Assembly (NCBI GenBank): GCA_963829055.1
Contig: CAWHHI010000006.1
Coordinates: forward strand, 1 to 64,000
Source of the DNA: an uncultured Gemmatimonadaceae bacterium
GTDB lineage: Bacteria > Gemmatimonadota > Gemmatimonadetes > Gemmatimonadales > Gemmatimonadaceae
DNA: 64,000 bases
Direction of reading: 5' to 3'
Shown here: positions 10,018 to 53,188 of the stretch, piece after piece
Layout: the number at the start of each line of letters is the position of its first letter
Numbering within the stretch: position 1 is the first letter of the stretch
Translations under genes and position numbers: made by a program
Notes under the pieces: model-generated
Seen by the model: only the letters and a program-made list of their open reading frames with translations
Database searches by the model: none
What the model was told of the DNA's origin: nothing

Positions 10018-10091
10018 TGGAGCGGGCTACGGGAATCGAACCCGTCTGACTGGCTTGGGAAGCCAGGACATTACCACTATGCTAAGCCCGC
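10018..10091 (-). tRNA. tRNA-Gly (CCC)
   Basis: GCGGGCTTAGCATAGTGGTAATGTCCTGGCTTCCCAAGCCAGTCAGACGGGTTCGATTCCCGTAGCCCGCTCCA: acceptor stem, CTGGC/GCCAG anticodon stem with CCC, GTTCGA T-loop, encoded CCA. Confidence 0.97.
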
Positions 10092-28442: not shown

Positions 28443-30679
28443 CTAGTTGCGCGGCTGCCGCGCTTTCTGCGCGCGCACTTCCAGCGTCGCGAGGTTGCCG
28501 AGGCTGTCGGTGGCCCGCAGCACGACCGGCCCGTCACCCAGCGTCGCCAGCGGAATGCTGAAGCGCTCGCGCAAGTCCGTCGAGTGCGCCGTCCACCGGG
28601 AACACCGGTCGCCACTGTCCGTTGCCGAGGAGTACGTCGACCCGGTCGAGAGTCGACGCTGCATCGGTGACCTCGAACGCGAGGTTGGCGCTCGACGCCG
28701 CTGTCCCGTCGTCGGCTGACCTGCACGGTCGGCGGCGTGTTGTCGATCGTCAGCGGCCCGCTCTCGCGCTCGCCCTGCAGGGCGGTCGCGTCCGGATTGG
28801 CGCGGTTGTCGGCGGCGATCACGCGCACGACGTAGCGACCGTCCGGCAGCAGTGACGTGTCCCACGCGTAGACCGTCCCCACCAGTTCGCGTGCCAGCAC
28901 GCGCCAGTCGTCGGCACCGACGCGACGCACCGCGACTTCGTAGCGCAGGTCGTCCTTGTCGGGATCGGTGGCTTCCCACTGGAAGGTCTGGAAGCCCTTC
29001 TGGTACAGCCGCCGGCCGACGGGCGCCGCCGTGGCCGTCGGCGTCGCCGCGGCGATGGCCTGATCGCGCGCCGGCGCCGGCGTCGTGGACAGGTATCCCG
29101 CGAGGTCGGGCGGTTCCTGCGTGGCATAGGGCTGCTGGAACACCACGCCCGGCGGGTGGATGGTGAGGCTGGTCAGGCGCGGCCGCTGGTTCCGCGGCAG
29201 GTACGTGAGCGTCACGTGATCGAGCACGGGCGCGCCGGCCAGATCGACCTTCCATTGCAGGTACCGCGCCGGTGGGCTGGCGATGCGCTGGACGCCTTCG
29301 TCGTCGCGGACCGGCACCCAGTCGGCCCACGTCTCGTCTGGCGTCGACGTGTTGCCGCTGCGTGTCGCGAAGGCGACGGTGCTGCCGGCCGGCCGCGTGC
29401 CTTCCCAGCGCAGCAGCCCCCAACTGGCGCCGGTCGTGGCGTCCTTGACCTCCGACGTGTAGCTGCCGGTCGGCGCCGCCGTACCCGCGAGTTCCAGGAT
29501 CTTGCCGGGGTTGGACGCCGTGACGAGGAAGCGGTCGCCGCGCGGCAGGATGCGCGTCAACTGCCGGCCCGGCACCTGCGCGATGCGAGCCGTGCGCACG
29601 GGGTCGCCGTCGAGCGCGTAGACGACGCCGTTGTCGGCCGACACGAGCAGGCGCCCCGACGCCGTCGGCAGCAGGTCGAACGGCAATTCGCCGGTCGCCT
29701 CCCAGTACGTGTCCACCAGGCCGTCGGCGCCGAGGCGGTAGACGGCGCCCTTGGCGCCACTGCCGCTCGCGCACTGAGCGAACTGCTGACGCTGGCCGCG
29801 GGCGACGCACTCACCGACGTCGAGTCGCCGATGGCGACGACGGTCACCTCCGTGCTGACCTGCGCGGTCGGCGTGGCGCTCGCGGCGCGTGGCGGGGCGA
29901 CGGCGCCGACGGCGTCGCGCCGGGCGAGACCGCCAGGATCCACGTCGTGCCGTTGGCGCCGGGCCGGATCGCCTGGACCTGCGAGTACGGGCCGTCGAGC
30001 AGGGCGAACGGCTTGCCGCCTGCGGGCACGCGATAGAGGCGTCCCGGGCTGTCGGTGCCGACCAGCACGTCGCCGGCGTCGTTCACCGACAGCGCGGTCA
30101 CGTTGGCCGCTGCGCTCTCGAAGATCCTCGTCGGCAGTGCCGCCGGTCCGCGGCAGCCGATAGACGCGCCCCTTGCCGCCGGTGGCCACGTACACCTGCT
30201 GCTGGCGGTCGACCGCGATCGCCCACACGTAGGTCTCCTCGGGATCGAAGAACACCGTGGCGGTGCCGTCCGGCGTGATGCGATACACCTTGCCGTCGGG
30301 CGACGTGCCGGCGAGCAGCGCGTCGCCGTGCCATGCCAGCGCGTGCACCTGCAGTTCCTCGCTGTCCCAGAACACGCGCGTCTTGTCGCCCGAGATCGCC
30401 ATCACCTGGCCATCGTTGCCGGTGCCGACGTAGAGCGTGCCGTCGGGCGCGGTCGTCGCCGTCCAGAGCGCCGGCGACGCGTCCTCGTGCAGCACCCGCA
30501 CCGCCGGACCGAGCGTGAGCCGACCATCGCGGGTCACCGCCACCTGCTCGCCGCGGCCGGCCATCCACTGGTCGCTGCTGCTGACTTCCCAGCGCGACGG
30601 GCCGGCGGCGCGCACGGGCAGCGAGACGACCGCCGCCACGGCGGCGATCGTCATGGAACACTCTGGACACATATGTCAT
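28443..30679 (-). CDS. secreted beta-propeller + FN3-like protein (frameshifted)
   Basis: Repeats DGTLYVGTGNDG, LLAGTSPDGKVY, YVWAIAVD; TRSGNTSTPDETW, PARYLQWK, DPDKDDLRY, LPDGRYVVRV, IDNTPP. Confidence 0.75.
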
Positions 30680-32574
30680 TTAGCGCTTACGGAACGATGG
30701 GAGTGATGGCGATGGTGCGCTGCCCGGTGGCGACGGCGTCGGCGGGGAGTTCCCACTCGCCGAGGACGTCCTGGTCCAGCGTGGTCGCGACCACGCCGGG
30801 AGCGGCGCCGAGCACCTGCATCACGCTGCCGGGCAGGGCCGGGAAGATCGCGGCCGTTGACGACCGAGCCCTGGGCCTGGCGGGTGAGGCGCACGTACCA
30901 GCGATCGCCCCGCCTGGCCTGGTTCAGCAGGCCGACGAGTTCGTCGACGCTGCGCGCCTGTTCCAGCGAGCGGCGTCGTCCCTCGAGCTGGGCGAGCGTC
31001 GTGCCGTCGATGACCTGCAACTGCAGCGTGCCGGTGGCGGTCGCCGGAATCGGCACCTGCAGCCGCTGCACCTGCGGCGCGCTGCGGAAGCTGCGCGTCT
31101 CGGTCATCAACGTGACCGTGTCGCCGGCGCGCGGGCGCGGCTCGGCGATCCAGGCGCGATCGAGGCGCGTCGATCGCTGCCGTTCGTCGGTGTCGACGTC
31201 GAGCGTGATCCGCCCGATCCTCGGCGTGCCGAGGTCGCTGCGGAGCACCGCGGCCAGCGGCGCGGCCAGTGACGCCGAGGCGGTGACGACGGCGCTGTCG
31301 CCGCCGAAGACGTTGTCCATGCGCAGCGTCGACGCGCCGATTTCGGCCGTGCCCTTCAGGCGGATGGTGGAGACGCCCACTTCGCGCTGGTAGGACTGCA
31401 GCACGTTGGCGACGGCGGCAAAGACGATCAGCGGCGAGAACAGCTGGTCCTCGGCGACCTCGAACGCGAACGAGCGCGACGTGCCGCCGTTGGCGCGCAT
31501 CGCGACGGTGAGCGGAATCGTGCGCGGCGCAGCGCCGAGCGTGCCGGCGATCGCCGTGGCGCGATCCTGATCCATCACGCCCATCACCTCGCCGAGCTGC
31601 GCGAGCTTGATGGAGTTGAGCAGGCTCGGAATCACCGCGACGACGTGCGCGCGCGTCATCGGCAGCTGCGCCGGGCCGAGGTTGAAGAAGGGATGGCCGA
31701 AGGCGAGCACGCGCGTGCCCTCGACGCTCGTCACCGTGCCGGTGGCGCCGAGCGACAGGTCGCCGCTCACGAGGCTGACGCCGATGGCATCACCGGGCTG
31801 CAAGCGGGGCAGCGGTCGCTGCGGCGCGCGCGGCTGCGGCGTCGGCCGTACGCCATGCCCGCGCCGCCCGACACCGGCGCGAAGCCGGCCGCCGCGAACG
31901 TGTCGGACAACCACGAACCGACCGGGGTGGAGAAGCCCGCCATCGACAGCGGCGTGGCGATCGGGCGAAGGACAGGGCTGCTGACCGTGTCGAGACCCAA
32001 TCCGCGCATCGAGGCAGGCGAGACGTTGACGCCGTCGCGGCCGGGCATCGACGCCAGGAACGCGTCGCGGAGCGCCTCGGCGGTCAGCGCCGTGTCGAGG
32101 GGCAAGGCGGCGACGCGGCGCGGCGCCGCCGTCGCGGACGCGGCCGTCGCGTCGGCCATCTCGGCGATCGGAGTGATGCCGGCGATGGGCGCCTTGGCGA
32201 ACTGGCCCATCGAGTACGCGACGGCGCCGACGAGGCGGCCGTCGATGTAGACCGGGCTGCCGCTCATGCCGGCGATCACGCCGGTGTTCTCGAGTCCGGC
32301 ACCTTCGAGACGCGCCAGGATGACCTGTCGCTTCGGCCCGATCACGCCGTCGAGCACGCCCAGGATGTGCGCCTTGAACGTGACGCGCTCGCCACCGTCC
32401 ATGCGCGTGACGCCCTCGGCCGACCTGTCCACGGCGAATCTCGGAGACGGGGAACGTCGTGCCGGCGGCCCTGACGGCCGTCGCCGAGACGGGCAGGTGC
32501 GCCGACCACGGCGCGCCGCAGAGGGCCAGCGCCAGGCTGGCGGCGAAGACGCCACGGAGCAGACGAGCAGTCAC
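30676..32574 (-). CDS. SpoIVB peptidase S55 domain protein (frameshifted)
   Basis: TGVIAGMSGSPVYIDGRLVGAVAY, AGITPI, GATGTVT, LAFGHPF; signal peptide. Confidence 0.85.
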   Translation of the reverse strand: MTARLLRGVFAASLALALCGAPWSAHLPVSATAVRAAGTTFPVSEIRRGQVGRGRHAHGRWRARHVQGAHPGRARRRDRAEATGHPGASRRCRTREHRRDRRHERQPGLHRRPPRRRRRVLDGPVRQGAHRRHHSDRRDGRRDGRVRDGGAAPRRRLAPRHGADRRGAPRRVPGVDARPRRRQRLACLDARIGSRHGQQPCPSPDRHAAVDGGLLHPGRFVVVRHVRGGRLRAGVGRRGHGVRPTPQPRAPQRPLPRLQPGDAIGVSLVSGDLSLGATGTVTSVEGTRVLAFGHPFFNLGPAQLPMTRAHVVAVIPSLLNSIKLAQLGEVMGVMDQDRATAIAGTLGAAPRTIPLTVAMRANGGTSRSFAFEVAEDQLFSPLIVFAAVANVLQSYQREVGVSTIRLKGTAEIGASTLRMDNVFGGDSAVVTASASLAAPLAAVLRSDLGTPRIGRITLDVDTDERQRSTRLDRAWIAEPRPRAGDTVTLMTETRSFRSAPQVQRLQVPIPATATGTLQLQVIDGTTLAQLEGRRRSLEQARSVDELVGLLNQARRGDRWYVRLTRQAQGSVVNGRDLPGPARQRDAGARRRSRRGRDHAGPGRPRRVGTPRRRRRHRAAHHRHHSHRSVSAK

Positions 32575-32667
32575 GGCTGAGGAGGCGGGCAAGATGGCTC
32601 GGTTATGACACGCGGTCCGAAGGGGGTCAAGCGAGCGCATGGCTCGCGTCATACCGTAGGACGATCG

Positions 32668-32697
32668 TTGACGCCGTTCGGACGACTCTGGTACGGT
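32668..32697 (+). promoter_or_regulatory. sigma70-type promoter of the aromatic amino-acid operon leader
   Basis: TTGACG (32668-73), 18-nt spacer ending in TGn, TACGGT (32692-97); 9 nt before leader ATG. Confidence 0.65.
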
Positions 32698-32706
32698 CTG
32701 CTGCAC

Positions 32707-32820
32707 ATGCGGGGCTGTGCCGCGTTCTCCTTCGTCTCTGGACCTGCCATCGACCGTGCGCCGTTTTCGGCGCGCTATTGGTGGTGGTATGGGTCCACAG
32801 CCGAGGGGGCGGCCGTCTAG
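32707..32820 (+). CDS. trpL: aromatic amino-acid (Trp/Tyr/Phe) attenuation leader peptide, 37 aa
   Basis: MRGCAAFSFVSGPAIDRAPFSARYWWWYGSTAEGAAV*; TAT-TGG-TGG-TGG-TAT at 32776-32790 upstream of trp/aro genes. Confidence 0.85.
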   Translation: MRGCAAFSFVSGPAIDRAPFSARYWWWYGSTAEGAAV

Positions 32821-32858
32821 CCGCGCACTGACCAGTACCGACTCGAAACGAGTACCTG

Positions 32859-32898
32859 GCGCCCCTTCGGCCACCTGCCGACGGGGCGCTTTTGTTTT
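32859..32898 (+). terminator. attenuator intrinsic terminator
   Basis: GCGCCCCTTCGGC-CACCT-GCCGACGGGGCGC (12/13 bp) + TTTTGTTTT; 5' arm alternatively pairs with GCCGAGGGGGCG (32800-32811). Confidence 0.88.
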
Positions 32899-32899
32899 C

Positions 32900-33052
32900 A
32901 CCGACGAACGCTGAACGCCAGACGCCGAACGCTCAATGCAACGCCACGCCTGACGCCAGCTAAGCCCTGAAGCCGTAAGCCGTAGCCGAGCCGTAGGCCG
33001 TAGCAGGCCACCGAGCTCCCGACTCCCGACTCCCGACCATCCGACTCCGATG
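32900..33052. repeat. mosaic of short tandem repeats (GAACGCY, AGCCGT(A), CTCCCGA)
   Basis: gaacgctgaacgccagacgccgaacgct; aagccgtaagccgtagccgagccgtaggccgtag; ctcccgactcccgactcccga. Confidence 0.7.
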
Positions 33053-33066
33053 TCGACCCCGCCCCC

Positions 33067-34543
33067 GTGAAACTCGTGGCCACCCTGGCCGACCTGACCG
33101 CCGAGGCGTTGCCGGCGGCGCGGGCGGAGGCGTTGCGTGTGGCCGACCTCGTGGAGTTCCGGCTCGATCGGCTGCCGGCGCTGCCGCTGGCGGACGTCCT
33201 CGGCGAGGCCGCGGCGCCGGGCCGTCGTGACCTTCAGGCCGATGCGGGAGGGCGGGCTGTTCGAGCGGCGAGGAGGCGACGCGGGAGTCAGCGGCTCCGC
33301 GAGGCGCTGGCGACTCGGGGCGGCGTTCGTCGACGTCGAGTGGGACGCCGACGTTCGCCGACGCCGTGATCGCGGCGCATCCCGGGCGGGTCGTGCTCTC
33401 GCGTCACGACTTCGTCGGCGATGCCCACGCGACCTCGCCGGCCTCGTCCGCGCGATGACGGCCCGTCGTCCGGCCGTCGTCAAGCTCGCGGTGACGCCCG
33501 CGCGGCTGACCGACCAACTGACGTTTCCGGACGCGGCTGCCGCTGCCGCCGGCACGCCGGTGGTGCTGATCGCGATGGGCACGGCCGGCCTGCCCTCGCG
33601 CATCCTGGCCGGACACGTCGGCTCGTGCTGGACCTACGCCGGCGCCGCCATCGCGCCCGGTCAGGTGCCGCCGGAGCTGATGCGCTCGCGCTACCGCGTC
33701 GGGCAGCACACGGCCGACACGCAGGTGTTCGGCGTGGCCGGACGGCCGATCGGTCATTCGTGGTCGCCGACGCTCCACAACGCCGCCCTGCAGGCCCTCG
33801 GCATCGACGGCGTCTACCTGCCGTTCGAGGCACAGGACATCGACGACCTGCTCGCCACGCGCGGCGGCGCTCGACGTGCGCGGCCTCAGCGTCACGGCGC
33901 CGTTCAAGCTCGATGCGCTGGCGCGCGCGTCCGTCGACGCCGATCCGCTGGCGCGCCGGCTCGGCGCGGCCAACACGCTCACGCGGACACCTGACGGCTG
34001 GGTCGCGCGCAACACCGACGTCGAGGGCTTCCTGCATCCGCTGCGCTCGCGGCTCACGCTGGCCGGCGCCCGCGCGTCGGTGCTGGGCGCCGGTGGCGCC
34101 GCCCGGGCGGTCGTCGCCGGCCTGCATGCCGAAGGTGCGCGCGTCACCGTGCACGCGCGGCGTCGCGACCAGGCCGAGTCGCTGGTGCCGCTCGGGCGCG
34201 ACGGTGGGGCAGTGGCCACCGCCGCCCGGCAGCTGGGACCTGCTCGTGAACACCACGCCCGTGGGCACGGCGCCGCACGTCGACGACACGCCGCTCGAGC
34301 GCGGAGTCGCTCGCCGGCGGCGGGCTCGTGTACGACCTGGTCTACAACCCCGGCCGGACGCGCCTGCTGCGCGACGCCGCGGCCGCCGGCTGCGAGACGC
34401 TCGGCGGCCTCGAGATGCTGATTGCCCAGGCGGCGGTGCAGGTCGCCACCTGGTTCCCCGTCGAGCCTCCCGTCGACGCGATGCGCGCTGCCATCCACGC
34501 CGAGGCGCCGCAACTGGCGCTGGAGACCTCATGTCCGCGATGA
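33067..34543 (+). CDS. aroDE: bifunctional type I 3-dehydroquinate dehydratase / shikimate dehydrogenase (frameshifted)
   Basis: VEFRLD, VDVEWD, SRHDF, VVKLAV, IAMG..G..SRI; then [47 protein letters not shown]. Confidence 0.88.
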
Positions 34544-36047
34544 CCCAGACCACCTTCGACGAATTCGTCGACCTCGCCCGCCGCGGCACGTTCGTGCCGG
34601 TGTGCCGCGAACTCCTCGCCGACCTGCTCACGCCGGTGTCGGCCTTCCTTCGCGTCGCGGAACATTCCGATTACGCGTTCCTGTTCGAGAGCGTCGAGGG
34701 CGGCGAGCAGGTGGCGCGCTACTCGTTCCTCGGCAAGGACCCGTTCCTCGTGCTGCGGGCGCGCGACGGCAAGGCGGTGATCGAGCAGGGCGGCCAGACC
34801 GCCGCGCTCGACGAGAGCTTCGTCGCGGCGCTGCGTCGCATCATGGCCGAGTACCGGTCGCCCTTCGTCCCCGGGCTGCCGCGATTCACCGGCGGCGCCG
34901 TCGGGTTCTTCGGCTACGACGCGGCGCCGTGGTTCGAGCCGGCCCTCCAGGACGTGTGGCAGAAGTACGAGGGCCAGCAGGACCCGCGCGACGAAGCGGC
35001 GTTCATGCTGTTCGACACGGTGCTGGCGTTCGACCACGTCAAGCACCGGATCCTGCTCATCGCCAACGCCCGCATCTCGCCGTCCGACGACCTGGCGTCG
35101 CTGTACCAGTTCGCCAATGCGCGGCTCGACTTCCTGCAACGGGAGCTCGAACAGGCGCACGCACAGCCGATTGCCGGCGGCGCGCCCGGCTCCGAGCCGC
35201 CGGCCGTCCGCGCGCTCACGAGCCGCGAGGACTTCGAACGCAACGTCCGCATGGCGCAGGAGTACATCGCCAGGGGCGACATCTACCAGGTGGTGCTGTC
35301 GCAACGCTTCGAGGTCGACCTCCAGGCCGACCCGTTCACCGTCTATCGCGCGCTGCGCCACGTGAACCCGTCGCCGTACATGTACTTCACGCGCGTCGGC
35401 GAACTGTCGATCGTCGGCTCGTCGCCCGAGATGCTCGTCCGCGTCGAGGGCGGCCAGGCCGAGACCCATCCGATCGCCGGCACGCGGCCGCGCGGCAGGA
35501 CGCACGAGGAGGACCTGCGCCTCGGCGAGGAGCTGAAGCGCGACGAGAAGGAACGCTCCGAGCACGTCATGCTCGTCGACCTCGGCCGCAACGACCTCGG
35601 CCGCGTCTGCGCCTACGGCTCGGTGCGCGTGCCCGCAGTTCATGACGCTCGAGCGCTACTCGCACGTCATGCACCTGGTCTCGCGTGTCGTCGGCACGCT
35701 GCGCCGACGATGCCGATCGGCTCGACGCGCTCGTGTCGTGCTTCCCGGCCGGGACCGTGTCGGGCGCACCGAAGATTCGCGCCATGGAGATCATCGCCGA
35801 GCTCGAGGGGCGCCCGCGCGGCGTCTACGCCGGGTCGGTGGGCTACGTGGACTTCGCCGGCAACCTCGATTGCTGCATCGCCATCCGGACCGTGTGGATG
35901 CGCGATGGTGTCGCCTACGTGCAGGCCGGCGGCGGCATCGTCGCCGACAGCCATCCGGCCGCCGAGTACGAAGAGAGCCTCAACAAGGCGCGCGCGGTGC
36001 TGCGTGCGCTCGAACTCGCCCATTCGCTGGGGCACCACGCCGGGTAG
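34531..36047 (+). CDS. trpE: anthranilate synthase component I
   Basis: [65 protein letters not shown]. Confidence 0.95.
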
Positions 36048-36049
36048 CC

Positions 36050-37639
<1,590 letters not shown>

Positions 37640-37643
<4 letters not shown>

Positions 37644-38474
37644 GCGCGCCCGTGCCGTCCGTGCTCGACTCCATCGTCGCGGCCGCATGGAAGCGCGTCG
37701 AAGTGGCGCGCGAGCGGCGCAGCCTCGCGGACCTCGAGCGCGCGCATCGCGGACCGGTCGCGGACGGTGCCGACGGCACCGGTTCATGGCGTCGTTGCGC
37801 CAGCCGGGCATCCGCGTCATCGCCGAATGCAAGCGCCGGTCGCCGTCGAAGGGCGTGTTGCGGCCGCAGTACGACCCGGTGGCGATCGCCGGCCAGTACG
37901 CGACGGCCGGTGCCGCCGCCATCTCGATCCTGACCGAGCCCGGCTTCTTCGACGGCGCGCTCGATCACCTGGTGGCCGTCCATGCGGCGCATCCGGGCGT
38001 GCCGTTGCTGCGCAAGGACTTCACCGTCGACGAGTACCAGATCGCCGAGGCGGCGCTCGCGGGCGCATCCGCGGTGCTCCTGATCGTGGCGGCCCTCGAG
38101 CAACCGGTGCTCGTGCGCCTGCTGGCGTACGCGGCGCAGGTGCGGCATCGACGTGCTGACCGAAGTCCACGACGAGGACGAAGCGCATCGTGCCATCGAC
38201 GCCGGCGCCACCATCGTCGGCGTCAACAACCGCAACCTCAAGACGCTGACGGTGTCGATCGACACCTCGCATCGCGTGGCGCCGATCATCGCCGTCGGCG
38301 CGTGTGCGGGTCGCCGAGAGCGGCTTGCGGACCGGCGCGGATCTGGCGTCGCTGCACGCAGCCGGCTATGGCGCGTTCCTCATCGGCGAGCGCTTCATGA
38401 CCGAGGCCAACCCGGGCGAGGCACTCGCGGCGGTGATCGGCGACGCGCGCGCGGCACTGGAGGCGCAGGCGTGA
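37640..38474 (+). CDS. trpC: indole-3-glycerol phosphate synthase
   Basis: [39 protein letters not shown]. Confidence 0.93.
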
Positions 38475-39101
38475 CCCGCATCAAGATCTGCGGGATGACC
38501 AGCGTGGAGGACGCGCTGATGGCTGTCGAGGCCGGCGCCGACGCCATCGGGCTGATCTTCTGGACCGGCAGCAAGCGGGCCGTGGGCGTCGAGCGCGCGC
38601 AGGCGATCACGCGCGCGCTGCCGCCGCTGGTCTCGACGGTCGGCGTGTTCGTGGACGAGACACCGGATCGCGTTCGGACCGTGGCCGATGCCGTCGGGCT
38701 CTCCGGCGTGCAGCTGCACGGCGACGAGGTGGTCGCGGACTGGGCGCGGTTTCCGCGTCCCGTCCTGAAGGCGATTGTCGATCGAACGGTACGCGACCAG
38801 CCCGTGGAAGACCGCCCGGGCGGCCATCCTCGTCGATGCGCACGATCCGGTCACGATCGGTGGCACGGGACGCACGATCGACTGGGACGCGGCGCGCGAG
38901 ATCGCGGCGACGCGACCGCTGGTGCTGGCTGGCGGGCTCAGGCCCGAGAACGTCGCCGAGGCAGTGACGCTGGTGGCGCCCTGGGGCGTCGATGTGGCCT
39001 CGGGCGTCGAGCAGGCGCCTGGCGTCAAGGATCCGGCCCGCGTGCGGGCCTTCGTGCAGGCAGTGCGTGCGGCCGATGCCGCGCGGGCACGGAAACAATG
39101 A
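38471..39101 (+). CDS. trpF: phosphoribosylanthranilate isomerase
   Basis: [37 protein letters not shown]. Confidence 0.93.
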
Positions 39102-39107
39102 GACTGA

Positions 39108-39137
39108 GGGCAGGGCCGGCTCTCCGAGCCCGGCCCA
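39108..39137. repeat. REP-like palindrome
   Basis: GCAGGGCCGGCTCTCCGAGCCCGGCCC; related GTAGGGCGCGTTCTCCGAACGCGCC at 41556-41580. Confidence 0.5.
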
Positions 39138-39158
39138 CAGGGACGCAGGGAACAGACG

Positions 39159-40395
39159 ATGACGATGGCAGCGCAGGAACGGACGGGACGACCCGTGTTC
39201 GGGCGTCGCGACCCGGACGCCCGCGGGTACTTCGGCGAGTACGGCGGACGGTTCGTGCCCGAGACGCTCGTGGCTCCGATGGAGGCGCTCACCGAGGCGT
39301 ACTTCGCGGTGCGGCAGGACGAGGCGTTCATCGCCGAATTCGAGCAGCTGCTGCGACAGTTCGTCGGGCGGCCGACGCCGCTCTACGAGGCGCGGCGGCT
39401 CTCGGAGGCGTGCGGCGGCGCCACGATCCTGCTGAAGCGCGAGGACCTCGCGCACACCGGCGCGCACAAGATCAACAACGCGCTCGGCCAGGCGTTGCTG
39501 GCCCGGCGCATGGGCAAGTCGCGCATCGTCGCCGAGACCGGCGCCGGGCAGCACGGCGTCGCGACCGCGACCGTCTGCGCGCTGCTCGGCATGCAGTGCG
39601 TCGTCTACATGGGCGTGGACGACATGGCGCGGCAGGCGCTCAACGTGTTCCGCATGCGCATGCTCGGCGCGGAGGTGCGCGGCGTCGACTCGGGATCGCG
39701 AACGCTCAAGGACGCGATCAACGAGGCGATGCGCGACTGGGTCGCGACCGTGCAGGACACCTACTACCTGCTCGGGTCGGCACTCGGGCCGCACCCGTAC
39801 CCGGTGATGGTGCGCGAGTTCCAGTCGGTCATCGGTGAGGAAGCGCGCGTGCAGTGCCTGGCGGCCTACGGACGGCTGCCCGATGCCGCGTTGGCGTGTG
39901 TCGGCGGCGGCAGCAACGCCATGGGCCTGTTCGACGCGTTCGTGGCCGATCGCGGTGTGCGACTGATCGGCGTCGAGGCCGGCGGCGAGGGCATCGAGGG
40001 CGGCAGGCACGCGGCGAGGTTCGCCGGCGGCACCCCGGGAGTGCTCCAGGGCACGCGGACGTTCGTCCTGCAGGATGCCAACTGGCAACATCGAGCTTAC
40101 GCATTCGGTGTCGGCAGGACTCGACTATGCCGCCGTCGGCCCGGAGCATGCCGACCTGCTGCAGCAGGGTCGGGCGGAGTACCGGTATGCCACCGACCCC
40201 GAAGCGCTCGCGGCCTTCGCGAGGCTCGGGCGGCTCGAGGGCATCCTGCCCGCGCTCGAATCGGCACATGCGATCGCGGCGGTGGAGCAGGTCGCACGCG
40301 AGGTGGGCACGGACGGCCTGGTCCTGGTGAATCTGTCGGGACGAGGCGACAAGGACGTGCAGAGCATCCAGGAACTGCTCGGAGATCAGGCATGA
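39159..40395 (+). CDS. trpB: tryptophan synthase beta chain
   Basis: [64 protein letters not shown]. Confidence 0.96.
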
Positions 40396-41194
40396 GCACA
40401 CGGCTCGAAGCGGCGTTCGCCAGCATGAAGGCCGAGCAGCGCACGGGGCTCGTGGCGTTCGTGTCCGGTGGGGACCCGACGCTGGAGCGTTCGGCCGACG
40501 TGATTCGCGCCGTCGACGAGGGCGGAGCCGACGTGATCGAGATCGGCGTGCCGTTCTCGGACCCGTTGGCCGACGGTCCCGAGATCCAGCGATCGTCGGA
40601 GCGCGCGCTGCGAGCCGGCGCGACGCTGCGCGGCGTCCTCGATCTGGTCGGCGGACCTCCGGAAGGACGTCGCCGCACCGCTGGTGTTGTTCAGTTATGC
40701 CAACCCGGTCGTGCGCTTCGGTGTCGAGGCGTTCGCCGCCCGCGCGGCGGAGGTCGGCGTCGACGGCGTGCTGCTGCTCGACCTGCCGCTCGAGGAAGCG
40801 GGGCCGACGCGCGACGTCCTGGTCGGCCGCGGACTGGCGCCCATCTTCCTGGTGAGCCCGACGACGACGGGCGCGCGGGTGCGCAAGGCGAACGACCTGG
40901 GCAAGGGCTTCCTGTACGCGATCTCGCGGCTCGGCGTGACGGGCGTCCGCGACCAGGTGGCTGGACGACGCGCGAGCGCTCGTCGACCGGCTGCGCCAGG
41001 ACGCGACACTGCCGATCGCGCTCGGGTTCGGCCTGTCGCGGCCCGAGCACATCCGCGACGTCGGCAAGTACGCCGACGCGGCCGTGGTGGGCAGCGCGCT
41101 CGTGGCGCAGGTGGCAAGGCACGGGCAGTCGCCGGCGCTGGCCGACGAGGTCAGGGGGTTCGTGCGCTGGCTGCGCGAGGGAGCGTCGGCATGA
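40392..41194 (+). CDS. trpA: tryptophan synthase alpha chain
   Basis: [44 protein letters not shown]. Confidence 0.95.
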
Positions 41195-41504
41195 CCGACC
41201 CGGACTGGCGGATGCGGGAACTGCGCGAGCGCATCGACGCGCTCGACGAGCAGATCGTCGCCTGCTCAACGAGCGCGCCGGGTGCGCGCTGCAGATCGGT
41301 GAGATCAAGCGCGAAACGGGCATGCCGATCTACCAGCCCGGTCGCGAGCGCGACGTGCTCGAGCACGTGCGGCGGGTCAATGGCGGGCCGCTCGACGGCG
41401 ACGCCGTGATGCGGTTGTTCGAACGGATCATCGACGAGGCGCGCCGCCTCGAGCGCGAGGTGCAGAAGGCGCACGACGCGGGCAGGACGGAAGCGGATAC
41501 GTGA
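41191..41504 (+). CDS. chorismate mutase (AroQ type)
   Basis: [22 protein letters not shown]....[16 protein letters not shown]. Confidence 0.88.
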
Positions 41505-41607
41505 CCGTGGAACGGGATCGGGAAGGCCGATCGGGAAGGCCGGGACCGCGTGAAGGTAGGGCGCGTTCTCCGAACGCGCCGATCTGGATACGAAAGCGAG
41601 CAGTGAC

Positions 41608-42657
41608 ATGGTCGTGGTGATGGAGGAACGCGCGAGCGAGGAGCAGATCCAGCGCGTGGTGGCCCAACTGGTGCAAATGGGCTTCGACGTGCACCGCTCC
41701 ACCGGATCGCTCCGGACGGTCATCGGCGCCGTCGGCGGCGAGGGCAAGCACGACCCGCGCCTGCTCGAGGTGCTCGACGGGGTGCACGAGGTGATGCGGA
41801 TCACCGAGCCCTACAAGCTCGCGAGCCGCACGTTCCGCAGCGAGGACACCGTCATCACCATCGGCGATCTCCGGATCGGTGGCGACGAGGTCATCGTGAT
41901 GGCCGGCCCGTGCTCGGCCGAGAACGAGGCGCAGGTGCTGAGCACGGCCGCGGCGGTGCGGCGGGCCGGAGCGAAGGTGCTGCGCGGCGGCGCCTTCAAG
42001 CCGCGCAGTTCGCCGTACAGCTTCCAGGGGCTTGGCGAAGAGGGCCTGAAGATGCTGCGAACCGGTGCCGACGCGCACAACCTCAAGCTCGTCTCCGAGG
42101 TGATGGACGCGAACCAGATCGCGTTGATGGACGGCTACGTGGACATCTACCAGGTCGGCGCGCGCAACATGCAGAACTACACGCTGCTGCGTGAACTCGG
42201 CAAGGTCCGCAAGCCGGTGCTGCTCAAGCGCGGCATCTCGGCGACGATCGAGGAATGGCTGCTCTCGGCCGAGTACGTGCTCGCCGGCGGCAACACGGAC
42301 GTCATCCTCTGCGAGCGCGGCATCCGGACGTTCGAGAGCTACACCCGTAACACGCTCGACATCTCCGCGATCCCGGTCGTGAAGAAGCTGAGTCACCTGC
42401 CGATCGTCGTCGACCCGAGCCATGGCACCGGTCGTCGCGACAAGGTGGCGCCGATGGCGCGCGCGGCCGTCGCGGCCGGCGCCGACGGATTGCTGATCGA
42501 GGTGCACTGCGATCCCGACAACGCGATGAGCGACGGTGCGCAGTCGATGTACCCGGGGCAGTTCGAGCGGCTGATGGCCGAACTGCGGATCATCGCGCCG
42601 GCCATCGGCCGCAGCATCTGCCAGGAACCGGTGGCGCGGCGCGGTTGGGGCCAGTGA
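41608..42657 (+). CDS. aroF: DAHP synthase type I-beta with N-terminal regulatory domain
   Basis: [56 protein letters not shown]. Confidence 0.95.
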
Positions 42658-43530
42658 GCGAGCCGGCGCCGTTCGAGCGCGTCCTGCTGGTGGGGTGTGG
42701 CCTCATCGGCGGATCGCTCGGCCTGGGCATCCGTGCCGTGTGGCCCGAGGTCGCCGATCACGGTGCTCGATCCGGCCGCCGATCCGCGGGTGAAGGATCA
42801 CTTCACGCTGGTGTCGTCACCGGCGGCGGCCGGAGACGACGGATCTGGTGGTGCTCGGCGCGCCCGTGCTGGAGAACCTGCGGTTGCTCGATGCGCTCGC
42901 GCCGTACGTCGGCGCCCACACCGTCGTGACCGACCTTGGCAGCACCAAGGGCGCGATGGTGGCGCACGCGCGGCGGCATCGCGGCGCTCGCGTTCGTCGG
43001 CGGGCATCCGATGGCCGGCAGCACCCACAGCGGCTTTGCCCACGCCGACCCCGGGCTGTTCGTCGGCCGCCCCTGGATCCTGACGCCGGACACCGACGGC
43101 CGTGTGCCCGCCGCGGTGGTCGGGACCGCGCTGGCACGGATGACGCAACTGGTCGTCGGCATCGGCGCGCGCCCGGTGGTGATGGGCGCCGACGAGCACG
43201 ACCACGTGATGGCGTACGTCAGCCACCTGCCGCAGATCGTCAGCAGCACGCTGATGGCCGTGGCGGGCAAGGCGGTGACGAGCGATGGGCTGCAGTTCGC
43301 GGGGCCCGGGCTTGCCGACACGACGCGCCTGGCTGGCAGCGCACCCGCGCTCTGGCTCGACATCCTCGCGACCAACGCCGCGCACGTCGGCCAGGCGCTC
43401 GACACGTTGCGGGCGATGCTGCCGACGCCGTCGATGCTGTCTGGACGACGCCGCGCCGATGCAGCCGTTGCTGCAGGAGGGCCGCCGCTGGCGATCCGAC
43501 ATTCGACGGCCAGCGTCCGCCGCGGTCCGT
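42654..43530 (+). CDS. tyrA: prephenate dehydrogenase (frameshifted; may be fused to downstream GNAT)
   Basis: GCGLIGGSL, TDLGSTKG, FVGGHPMAG, EHDHVMAYVSHLPQ, DTTRLAGS...LWLDI. Confidence 0.88.
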
Positions 43531-51549: not shown

Positions 51550-53105
51550 TCAGCGCAGTTGCGCGTCCACCTCGTCGAAGTAGTCCTTGGGCACGAGCAC
51601 CTCGCGGGCCTTGCCGCCCTGGCCGCTCGAGACCAGCCCTTCGGCCTCCATCATGTCCACCAGGCGCGCGGCACGGCTGAAGCCGATGCGCAGCCGTCGC
51701 TGCAGGTAGCTGATCGATGCCTGCGCGCTCGACACCACGATGCGCGCCGCCTCGTCGTAGAGGTCGTCCTTCTCGAATCCGCCCGCCATCGTCTCGCCCG
51801 ACTTCTCCTCGTCGGTGATCGATCGGTCGTACGACGGCTGGCCCTGCTTGCGCAGGAAGCTCGCCAGTCGCGCGCTCTCCTGCTCCGAGATGTAGGCGCC
51901 ATGCAGGCGCATGACGCGCGAGGACGCGGGCGGCAGGAAGAGCATGTCGCCCTTGCCGAGCAACTGCTCGGCGCCGTTGGCGTCGAGGATCGTCCGTGAG
52001 TCGACCTTGGACGACACGCGGAAGGAGATGCGCGACGGCATGTTGGCCTTGATCAGGCCGGTGATGACGTCCACCGACGGACGCTGCGTCGCGAGGATCA
52101 GGTGGATGCCGACCGCACGCGCCATCTGCGCGAGTCGGCAGATGGATTGCTCGACCTCGCTCGAGGCCACCATCATCAGGTCCGCGAGTTCGTCGATGAC
52201 GACGACGACGAACGGCAGCGGCTTGAGGGCTTCGCCGGTCTTCGAGTCGGTCCGCACCTCGCCGGCGTCGATCGACGCCTTGAGGTTGCGGTTGAACTGC
52301 TCGATGTTGCGGACGCCGAACGCGGCCAGCGTCTTGTAACGCTCTTCCATCTCCCGCACGGCCCAGCGCAGCGCATTGGCCGCGAGCTTGGGCTCGACCA
52401 CGACCGGCGTGAGCAGGTGGGGGATGTCCTCGTACATGCCGAGTTCGAGGCGCTTCGGGTCGATCATGATGAAGCGCACCTGATCCGGCGTGGCGCGGTA
52501 GAGGATGCTCGTCAGCATCGCGTTGAGGCCGACCGACTTGCCCGTGCCGGTCGACCCGGCGATGAGCAGGTGCGGCATCGTCGCCAGGTCGCTGACGTAG
52601 GGCTCGCCGTGGATGGTCTTGCCGAGCGCGATCGCCAGCTTGGAACTGGACTTCCGGTACGGCTCCGACTCGAGCAGTTCGCGCAGCGAGATCGACTCGC
52701 GGACGGGGTTCGGGATCTGGATGCCGACGGTGCTCTTGCCAGGAATGCGATCGATCAGCACCGACTCGGCACGCATGGCCAGGGAGAGATCCTCGGACAG
52801 CCCCGTGATCTTGCTGTACTTCACGCCCGCATCGGGCTTGAACTCGTAGGTCGTGACGACCGGTCCCGGCAGGATCTGGACGACGGTGCCTTCGACGGAG
52901 AACTCGCGGCACTTGTCCTCGAGTTGTCGCGCCGAATCCATCAACTCCCGCTCGTCCACCTTGCGCTCGGCCTGGGCCGGGTCGAGCAGCGCGAGCGGCG
53001 GCAGCGTGTAGCCGCCGGCCTTGCGCTCGGCGGGCGCCTTCAACTCGGACTCGTGCTCGGCCAGCGACGTGGGTGTTGGCGTCGGCGAGACGCGCACGGG
53101 CTGCG
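51550..53105 (-). CDS. ftsK: DNA translocase FtsK, motor and gamma domains only (5' end missing)
   Basis: PHLLIAGSTGTGKS, IDPKRLEL, VIDELADLM, LATQRPSVDVITG, GAEQLLGKGDML, LQRRLRIGFSRAAR; no N-terminal TM domain. Confidence 0.92.
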
Positions 53106-53129
53106 GGCGAACGCGGCTACCGCGGTTAC

Positions 53130-53188
53130 ATAAGCCACTGTAAAGCCACTGTAAGTGCTGGCCAATCCTCCCATAAGCACGAGGTAAG
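53130..53188 (+). promoter_or_regulatory. 11-bp-phased TAA(G) direct-repeat array (putative SARP/BTAD-type operator)
   Basis: AAGCCACTGTA tandem; TAA at 53141, 53152, 53174, 53185. Confidence 0.55.

Follow-up and report, generated by a model that had tools for sequence, protein, structure and literature searches.

Positions 32668–32898 of the window, the 64,000-nucleotide stretch of DNA analysed here, almost certainly hold a ribosome-sensed transcription attenuator, judging from sequence comparison. The complete explanation, in which a leader peptide rich in Trp and Tyr codons attenuates an operon for aromatic amino acid synthesis, is in our view likely to be right: RNA polymerase would read through into the operon under a shortage of charged Trp-tRNA or Tyr-tRNA. 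Every element given in the initial annotation is present at its position, and all features described below lie on the plus strand unless otherwise stated.

The TrpE encoded in the window is 62–79% identical to records from Vicinamibacterales, Vicinamibacteria and Acidobacteriota, and only 41–44% identical to TrpE of the genus under which the assembly (G000) is listed. Up to ~53,100 the window is syntenic with G126, a Vicinamibacterales sample, at 88–96% DNA identity, and from ~53,140 onward it tracks the listed genus at 78–84%. Along the contig (C6) a G126-like composition is found at both ends only, reappearing beyond ~580 kb, and rpoB of the assembly sides with the listed genus. Given this identity switch, the composition of the ends and the placement of rpoB, the contig is most likely an assembly chimera with its junction at window ~53,100–53,140, and the attenuator is part of the Vicinamibacterales portion. 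Findings reported here are thus not assignable to the taxon of the bulk assembly, and genome-wide statements on that assembly do not apply to them; G126, a close relative in a single contig, was used as a stand-in for genome-wide questions. When 61 genomes listed as relatives were searched at the DNA level, only short matches due to chance or repeats turned up; these genomes are kin of the bulk assembly and not of the stretch under study. The only Rfam match of the window is a tRNA gene at 10021–10091 on the minus strand.

Downstream of the attenuator lies the operon that it would control, of eleven genes in the order aroDE-trpE-trpG-trpD-trpC-trpF-trpB-trpA-chorismate mutase-aroF-tyrA (33050–43500, end approximate), where aroF encodes DAHP synthase and tyrA prephenate dehydrogenase; a GNAT gene follows, to 44064. 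Single-base indels are frequent in window genes and most genes between 33050 and 45600 are frameshifted. The frameshifts are absent from the corresponding locus of G126 (L169), an independent assembly 92–95% identical to the window, and are probably sequencing errors. Gene content was accordingly read on L169 and mapped to the window, which bore out the aromatic gene set named in the initial annotation. The aroD start is probably the ATG at 33050, with an indel, and gene spacing together with conserved order suggests that the operon is co-transcribed. On the minus strand, a divergent gene (30676–32600) with a GMSGSPV motif, which may encode a SpoIVB-like peptidase, keeps its head-to-head arrangement with the operon in the majority of close relatives; its frameshifted ORF in the window gave no Pfam match.

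In order to examine conservation we used 301 genomes from the order to which G061 belongs, 286 of which have an AroD match. From the 150 matches listed we took 139 AroD loci (11 with short flanks were left out) and added that of G064, giving 140 loci, each with 13 kb downstream. The gene order of the operon is conserved wherever contigs permit. A nucleotide profile of the attenuator matches 137 of these 140 aroDE loci as well as the window; 131 of the matching loci were the profile seed, and among the nine non-seed loci the profile found six, one only partially. At 9 of 140 loci the hairpin finder had found nothing or chosen the wrong hairpin, and these were rechecked by the profile. After removal of L219 and L176, for which no terminator was called, and of three loci lacking the element, 136 loci remained, and collapsing them at 75% identity left 92 representatives. 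The profile also matched 20 of 80 loci selected by TrpE, each of them from the nearest relatives that carry aroDE; it had no match in the 60 more distant TrpE loci, and no such leader was found at six more distant Acidobacteriota aroDE loci. By sequence, the element is a conserved family in Vicinamibacterales. At L176 (G173) the leader is intact and the 5′ arm of the terminator is deleted, through either an assembly error or a constitutive mutation. Four further loci (L193, L262, L242 and L267) have trpA-tyrA operons lacking a chorismate mutase/aroF match and leaders that retain Tyr codons; no close aroF match was found anywhere in G272 and G118.

The leader ORF (32707–32820) encodes 37 amino acids (MRGCAAFSFVSGPAIDRAPFSARYWWWYGSTAEGAAV) in the same frame as in L169 and has no Shine-Dalgarno match. 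Upstream are a putative −35 hexamer, TTGACG (32668–32673), and an extended −10 element of the form TG-n-TACGGT (here TG-G-TACGGT, 32689–32697), with the ATG at 32707 placed 9 nt past the −10 box, an arrangement which agrees with that first proposed and whose pattern is kept in relatives. A simple consensus scan of the locus returned neither a promoter nor a terminator; the −10 box agrees with TATAAT at three of six positions, and the terminator stem has an internal mismatch. Since the scan scored neither element, the identification of both rests on conservation. A pattern search found a TTG-type −35 and a TAnnnT −10 in 87 of the 92 representatives, the commonest −35 variants being TTGACA (58), TTGACG (17) and TTGACC (9), and the TG extension is present in 80 of the 87. 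A start codon lies 6–13 nt after the −10 box in the frame of the Trp codons in 53 of 87 leaders, whereas the two remaining frames have one in 11 and 2 (31 versus 1 and 1 for ATG alone), and none of these 53 leaders has a Shine-Dalgarno-like match. Spacing from the −10 box to the start is at least 20 nt in 19 representatives, and leaders range from 18 to 58 aa. It seems reasonably likely from these patterns that translation starts near the 5′ end of the RNA in the absence of a Shine-Dalgarno sequence. Judging by the spacing, the 5′ UTR would be a few nucleotides long and need not be zero, so that the peptide originally suggested as apparently leaderless may have a very short 5′ UTR. Gene callers had been expected to miss this ORF, and the exact peptide is absent from the collection of called proteins.

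An intrinsic terminator follows the leader at 32858–32898, with a 5′ arm at 32860–32871, a 3′ arm at 32877–32888 and a U-tract at 32890–32898; its fold (−26.6 kcal/mol, z −5.16) was equalled by none of 200 shuffles. The 5′ arm can alternatively form 12 bp, one of them G-U, with an antiterminator box inside the ORF (GCCGAGGGGGCG, 32800–32811, segment 2) that begins 9 nt past the Tyr-Trp-Trp-Trp-Tyr (YWWWY) codons. These two exclusive pairings had been pointed out in the initial annotation, as had the need to look for covarying stems and conserved Trp/Tyr codons upstream of aroDE in relatives, and both helices covary. In an alignment of 90 of the 92 representatives, built without fitting to structure, 84% of cells in the antiterminator helix are paired, compared with 36–56% in slid controls, and 94.7% of cells in the terminator helix, with two-sided changes at 7 of 11 pairs in each; the relatives are not independent, and relatedness limits the shuffle controls for pairing. 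In the 15 leaders where position 4 of the arm is C, its partner in the box is G in every case. The arm forms a stronger duplex with its own box (−17.0) than with swapped ones (−14.7 ± 0.25, 0 of 1000 swaps as good), and leader pairing exceeded that of all 13 control windows in 72 of 91 loci, in a test where the box was placed by best pairing, which inflates its pairing. The spacer between terminator and operon (32899–33049) is made up of imperfect short repeats (ACGCC, GCCGTA, CCGACT) and is not conserved in length, and the distance from terminator to aroD is highly variable among relatives. Imperfect tandem repeats of 5–7 nt occur in this and other intergenic stretches (window 32899–33049, L300 and L169); they differ per site and recur in the genus-level group.

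Folding of a partial transcript under a ribosome-footprint constraint, a check proposed at the outset, adds a further element to the switch. In the window leader without a ribosome the box pairs with codons 5–10, and the probability of pairing between antiterminator and arm, P(anti:arm), is 0.01. This segment 1 (32719–32734), which in partition-function folds is a predicted anti-antiterminator pairing with 32802–32813, was overlooked in the initial annotation; in the predicted fold Phe9 is paired and Phe7 bulged. MFE folds also predict an inner hairpin (32739–32797) in which the Trp/Tyr codons are contained and whose loop includes Phe20. When a ribosome is moved along the window leader, P(anti:arm) is 0.89–0.98 with the A site at codons 2–29, 0.17 at codon 30 and 0 beyond, a collapse which makes Tyr28 almost the last codon where a pause still permits read-through. 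In this model any pause at codons 2–29 would suffice, so that the aromatic codons are not distinguished by folding from the others. On partial transcripts of relatives P(anti:arm) exceeds 0.5 in 84 of 87 with the ribosome at the last Trp and in 0 of 87 at the stop; with no ribosome the antiterminator still forms in 50 of 87, and segment 1 is thus not general. At equilibrium of the full-length RNA the probability of the terminator in the window is 0.98–1.0 even with a stall on Trp/Tyr, and the antiterminator persists at the last Trp in 13 of 87 relatives. The expectation that the box is freed by a stall and masked once the ribosome has reached the stop thus holds in the partial transcript and fails at full-length equilibrium. 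Because the finished terminator wins at equilibrium, the switch must be kinetic, as it is in other attenuators too.

In the proposed mechanism, RNA synthesis would start a few nucleotides before the ATG from a promoter of the sigma-70 type, and a ribosome would initiate without a Shine-Dalgarno sequence. If the leader is left untranslated, codons 5–10 are predicted by folding to pair with the box and the terminator would form. With a ribosome pausing anywhere up to codon 29, the box would remain accessible and pair with the 5′ arm ahead of synthesis of the 3′ arm, resulting in read-through; a ribosome that has passed codon 30 would mask the box and let the terminator form. The switch would rely on kinetic trapping of the antiterminator. 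What comparison of relatives shows is conservation of the Trp and Tyr codons, of the register between these and the box, and of the two helices.

The sensor codons of the window, at 32776–32790 (Tyr24 to Tyr28), are the sole run of at least four Trp/Tyr codons in any of the six frames of window 1–53,000, and one of two runs of five in the 7.78-Mb assembly, which is mixed. For comparison among relatives, we defined a sensor zone from four codons ahead of the first Trp through the antiterminator box; the leader frame was chosen on Trp, so the Trp count holds partly by construction, and Tyr/Phe served as a tie-break once. Across the 92 representatives, in-frame and the two off-frame counts are 251, 9 and 13 for Trp, 126, 2 and 7 for Tyr, and 63, 18 and 12 for Phe, with no enrichment of His (9, 6 and 29) or Cys (22, 28 and 29) in the zone. 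Tyr enrichment has a z of 32 against shuffles that retain the Trp codons. Tyr is found in the zone of 86 leaders, Phe in 53 and neither in two. In 80 of 92 the box keeps its register modulo 3 relative to the last Trp. An attenuator of the multivalent kind selects more than one codon type in step with operon content; this is seen for Tyr and more weakly for Phe. Trp is very probably an input, given these patterns, and Tyr is a likely second one, in keeping with the original proposal of both codons acting in one leader.

The role of Phe is less clear. The Phe codons further upstream show a milder in-frame excess (87, 50 and 48), with an excess in 47 versus 24 of 92 loci, which favours the suggestion that they too are sensors; against it, Phe9 of the window also sits in the segment 1 helix, so that Phe sensing cannot be read cleanly from the upstream Phe codons of the window. 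We regard the chances that Phe is a third input as evenly balanced on this sequence evidence. The pheA gene is located outside the aromatic operon, and no Phe-run leader was seen ahead of it by eye in four genomes; control by Phe at the steps of chorismate mutase and DAHP synthase would then make sense.

A natural experiment on codon identity is provided by genomes in which the operon is split. At three aroDE loci (G120, G213 and G072) the element is absent, and aroDE there has no trp genes behind it or is cut short; a promoter-like sequence stands directly ahead of aroD at these loci, and G302 is alike. In G120 and G213 the trpA gene is located at another place in the genome; none was found in G072. 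Of the 301 genomes, 178 have the terminator pattern, almost all of them at a single site, but G120, G213 and G302 have it at two separate sites. The copies at trpE read SWWWWSTS (G120), SSWWWRNTIH (G213) and SSWWWRNSIH (G302), with Trp as the only aromatic residue in the sensor zone, and those at chorismate mutase-aroF-tyrA read GYAYYAPH (G120) and FGYAFTYWGWFTTH (G213, F-G-Y-A-F-T-Y-W-G-W-F), the G302 copy at aroF being truncated by the contig end. Tyr is the sole aromatic residue of the second G120 copy, and the G213 copy keeps two Trp. The trp block of G120 holds a second aroF, yet its leader has no Tyr codon. G133, the nearest unsplit genome, has YSYWWWYSIH, with the IH-stop ending of its split relatives, and G191, which has lost aroDE and still has aroF-tyrA behind trp, retains Tyr codons. 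Both aroF copies share the sequence from promoter to start, which indicates that the split was probably one evolutionary event involving three genomes; in a TrpE+TrpB tree G133 is nested among the split genomes with mixed support. Trp-only copies at trp and Tyr-rich copies at chorismate mutase-aroF-tyrA support Tyr as a real second input. A broader idea, to which we give slightly less than even weight, is that one mini-gene lacking a Shine-Dalgarno sequence reads Trp, Tyr and Phe tRNAs for the whole supraoperon throughout Vicinamibacterales, its copies re-tuning their codons upon fission to match the genes that each controls. If true, this would be regulatory subfunctionalisation through few codon changes.

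The main alternative to a Trp/Tyr sensor is a classical attenuator that responds to Trp alone, with Tyr and Phe codons carried along as passengers of RNA pairing or through mutational closeness to TGG. Trp does predominate, zone Tyr is missing in 6 of 92 leaders and both Tyr and Phe in two, Phe9 is paired within segment 1, and in the part of PMC11802643 available the Tyr codon of the AroR leader is reported as non-sensing. Mutational closeness would apply to Cys as well, which is also one change from Trp and is unenriched in the zone. The passengers would moreover have to account for the in-frame excess of Tyr, its variable position and the equal use of its two codons (TAT 64, TAC 64; 571 and 2050, or 78% TAC, in the operon genes), and for its disappearance from the trp-only copies when it is the one aromatic residue left at chorismate mutase-aroF-tyrA of G120. 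We consider a Trp-only attenuator unlikely.

Other explanations dispense with charged tRNA as the signal. Nascent-peptide arrest of the TnaC kind, with aromatic residues acting in the exit tunnel to sense the free amino acid, would fit an aromatic cluster conserved 7–17 codons before the stop and a C-terminal EGA/EEA-like motif that looks conserved. This motif is the translated RNA box, the stop lies in or before the box in several leaders, and the fixed residues at a fixed distance to the stop that characterise TnaC are not seen, the 92 representatives having 67 distinct W/Y/F patterns in leaders of very different length. Such diversity is easier to reconcile with sensing of tRNA than with peptide arrest, and the locus has an intrinsic terminator for which an alternative helix exists; arrest is very improbable. 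Alternative terminator and antiterminator helices are common in systems where a protein or a tRNA binds the RNA, so that TRAP or T-box antitermination, or a repressor, could be envisaged with the ORF as an incidental feature. It would leave unexplained the selection of start codons and register in the Trp frame, and the locus has no Rfam match; TRAP and TrpR were each found in 0 of 5 genomes and a T-box in 0 of 2, the close relative G126 included, in searches that detected their positive controls. We give this scarcely any weight, and no more to a constitutive terminator with complementarity and ORF arising by chance. GC-rich DNA does yield chance pairings, and all 13 control windows were beaten in no more than 72 of 91 loci; conservation across the order, covariation, and duplication with a matching codon change when the operon split all speak against chance.

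Ribosome-sensed attenuation with Trp and Tyr as inputs resembles several known systems. The leaders of thrL (Thr/Ile) and ilvGMEDA (Leu/Val/Ile) are multivalent attenuators, and the present element is like them in having several kinds of sensor codon in one leader of a branched pathway; it differs in its aromatic set, Trp+Tyr(+Phe), for which no description was found in the literature searched. The locus has the hallmarks of a classical attenuator, namely an upstream ORF with codons for the end products, an intrinsic terminator and a covarying exclusive antiterminator, so that the geometry of E. coli trpL recognised in the initial annotation is present in its testable defining features. With E. 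coli trpL (PMC11802643; Rfam Trp_leader RF00513, PMC4046766) the element shares a short ORF with Trp codons and an intrinsic terminator and, as predicted for the window, segments 1–4 and control by charged tRNA. Here, in contrast, the ORF of 37 aa has Tyr (and Phe) codons in addition to those for Trp, contains the box and starts near the promoter with no Shine-Dalgarno sequence, and shikimate, trp and Tyr-branch genes are jointly controlled, with no TrpR found in five genomes. The region 32400–33200 had no Rfam match at E up to 5, which places the element outside every Rfam family, including Trp_leader.

The aroR-aroF leader of C. glutamicum, as far as PMC4046766 and PMC11802643 are available, likewise has mixed aromatic codons before a DAHP synthase gene, and AroR (Phe-Tyr-Phe) responds to Phe and not to Tyr (PMC11802643). 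The accessible text gives C. glutamicum separate leaders for aroF and trp, whereas here one covers both; the split clade reaches the two-leader layout secondarily, a likeness in layout and codons. Mycobacterial leaderless polycysteine short ORFs also lack a Shine-Dalgarno sequence and start from the mRNA 5′ end, and in the portion seen they act on translation initiation of the next gene (bioRxiv 10.1101/834739), unlike the intrinsic terminator found here. Comparative genomics has predicted trp attenuators in Streptomyces and Corynebacterium (PMC1262725) and, for Acholeplasma, uORFC-13-1 upstream of aroF (PMC8632094), similarly from leaders, terminators and repeated complementary boxes; in the parts of these papers seen, the predictions are for other phyla and single amino acids, with no Acidobacteria among them. 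We found no description of an attenuator of this kind in Vicinamibacter or Acidobacteriota, as the initial annotation had supposed, in a search that left subscription journals mostly outside its scope and saw PMC4833913, whose leader-gene tables could list some, only in part.

The mechanism itself is textbook attenuation; the Trp+Tyr combination, which we did not find described in the literature searched, and the scope over an aromatic supraoperon set this element apart. The element adds an uncatalogued family of cis-regulatory RNA for an abundant and barely studied soil order. The YSYWWWY leader, which is of the ancestral type, and the WWWW and YAYY copies derived from that type share one RNA scaffold and so constitute a ready-made series on codon identity and position in multivalent attenuators, which also bears on whether translation lacking a Shine-Dalgarno start keeps pace with RNA polymerase.

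Two other sequences were noticed near aromatic genes. Before aroF-pheA, at ~557,620–557,770 of the same contig (G000:C6, L304), there is another aromatic leader (MSNRAAATYYYFSYW...), also followed by a terminator, that looks unrelated; it lies in a part that resembles the bulk assembly and does not match the attenuator profile. A conserved non-coding block, GCATGATTGCCTAACGAATATAACTTTGACTT, is located ~60 nt before pheA in both G126 and G150 (L301, L300); in G126 it appears to head a pheA-ilvD-ilvB run (genes named by eye) and may be a promoter or a regulator site.
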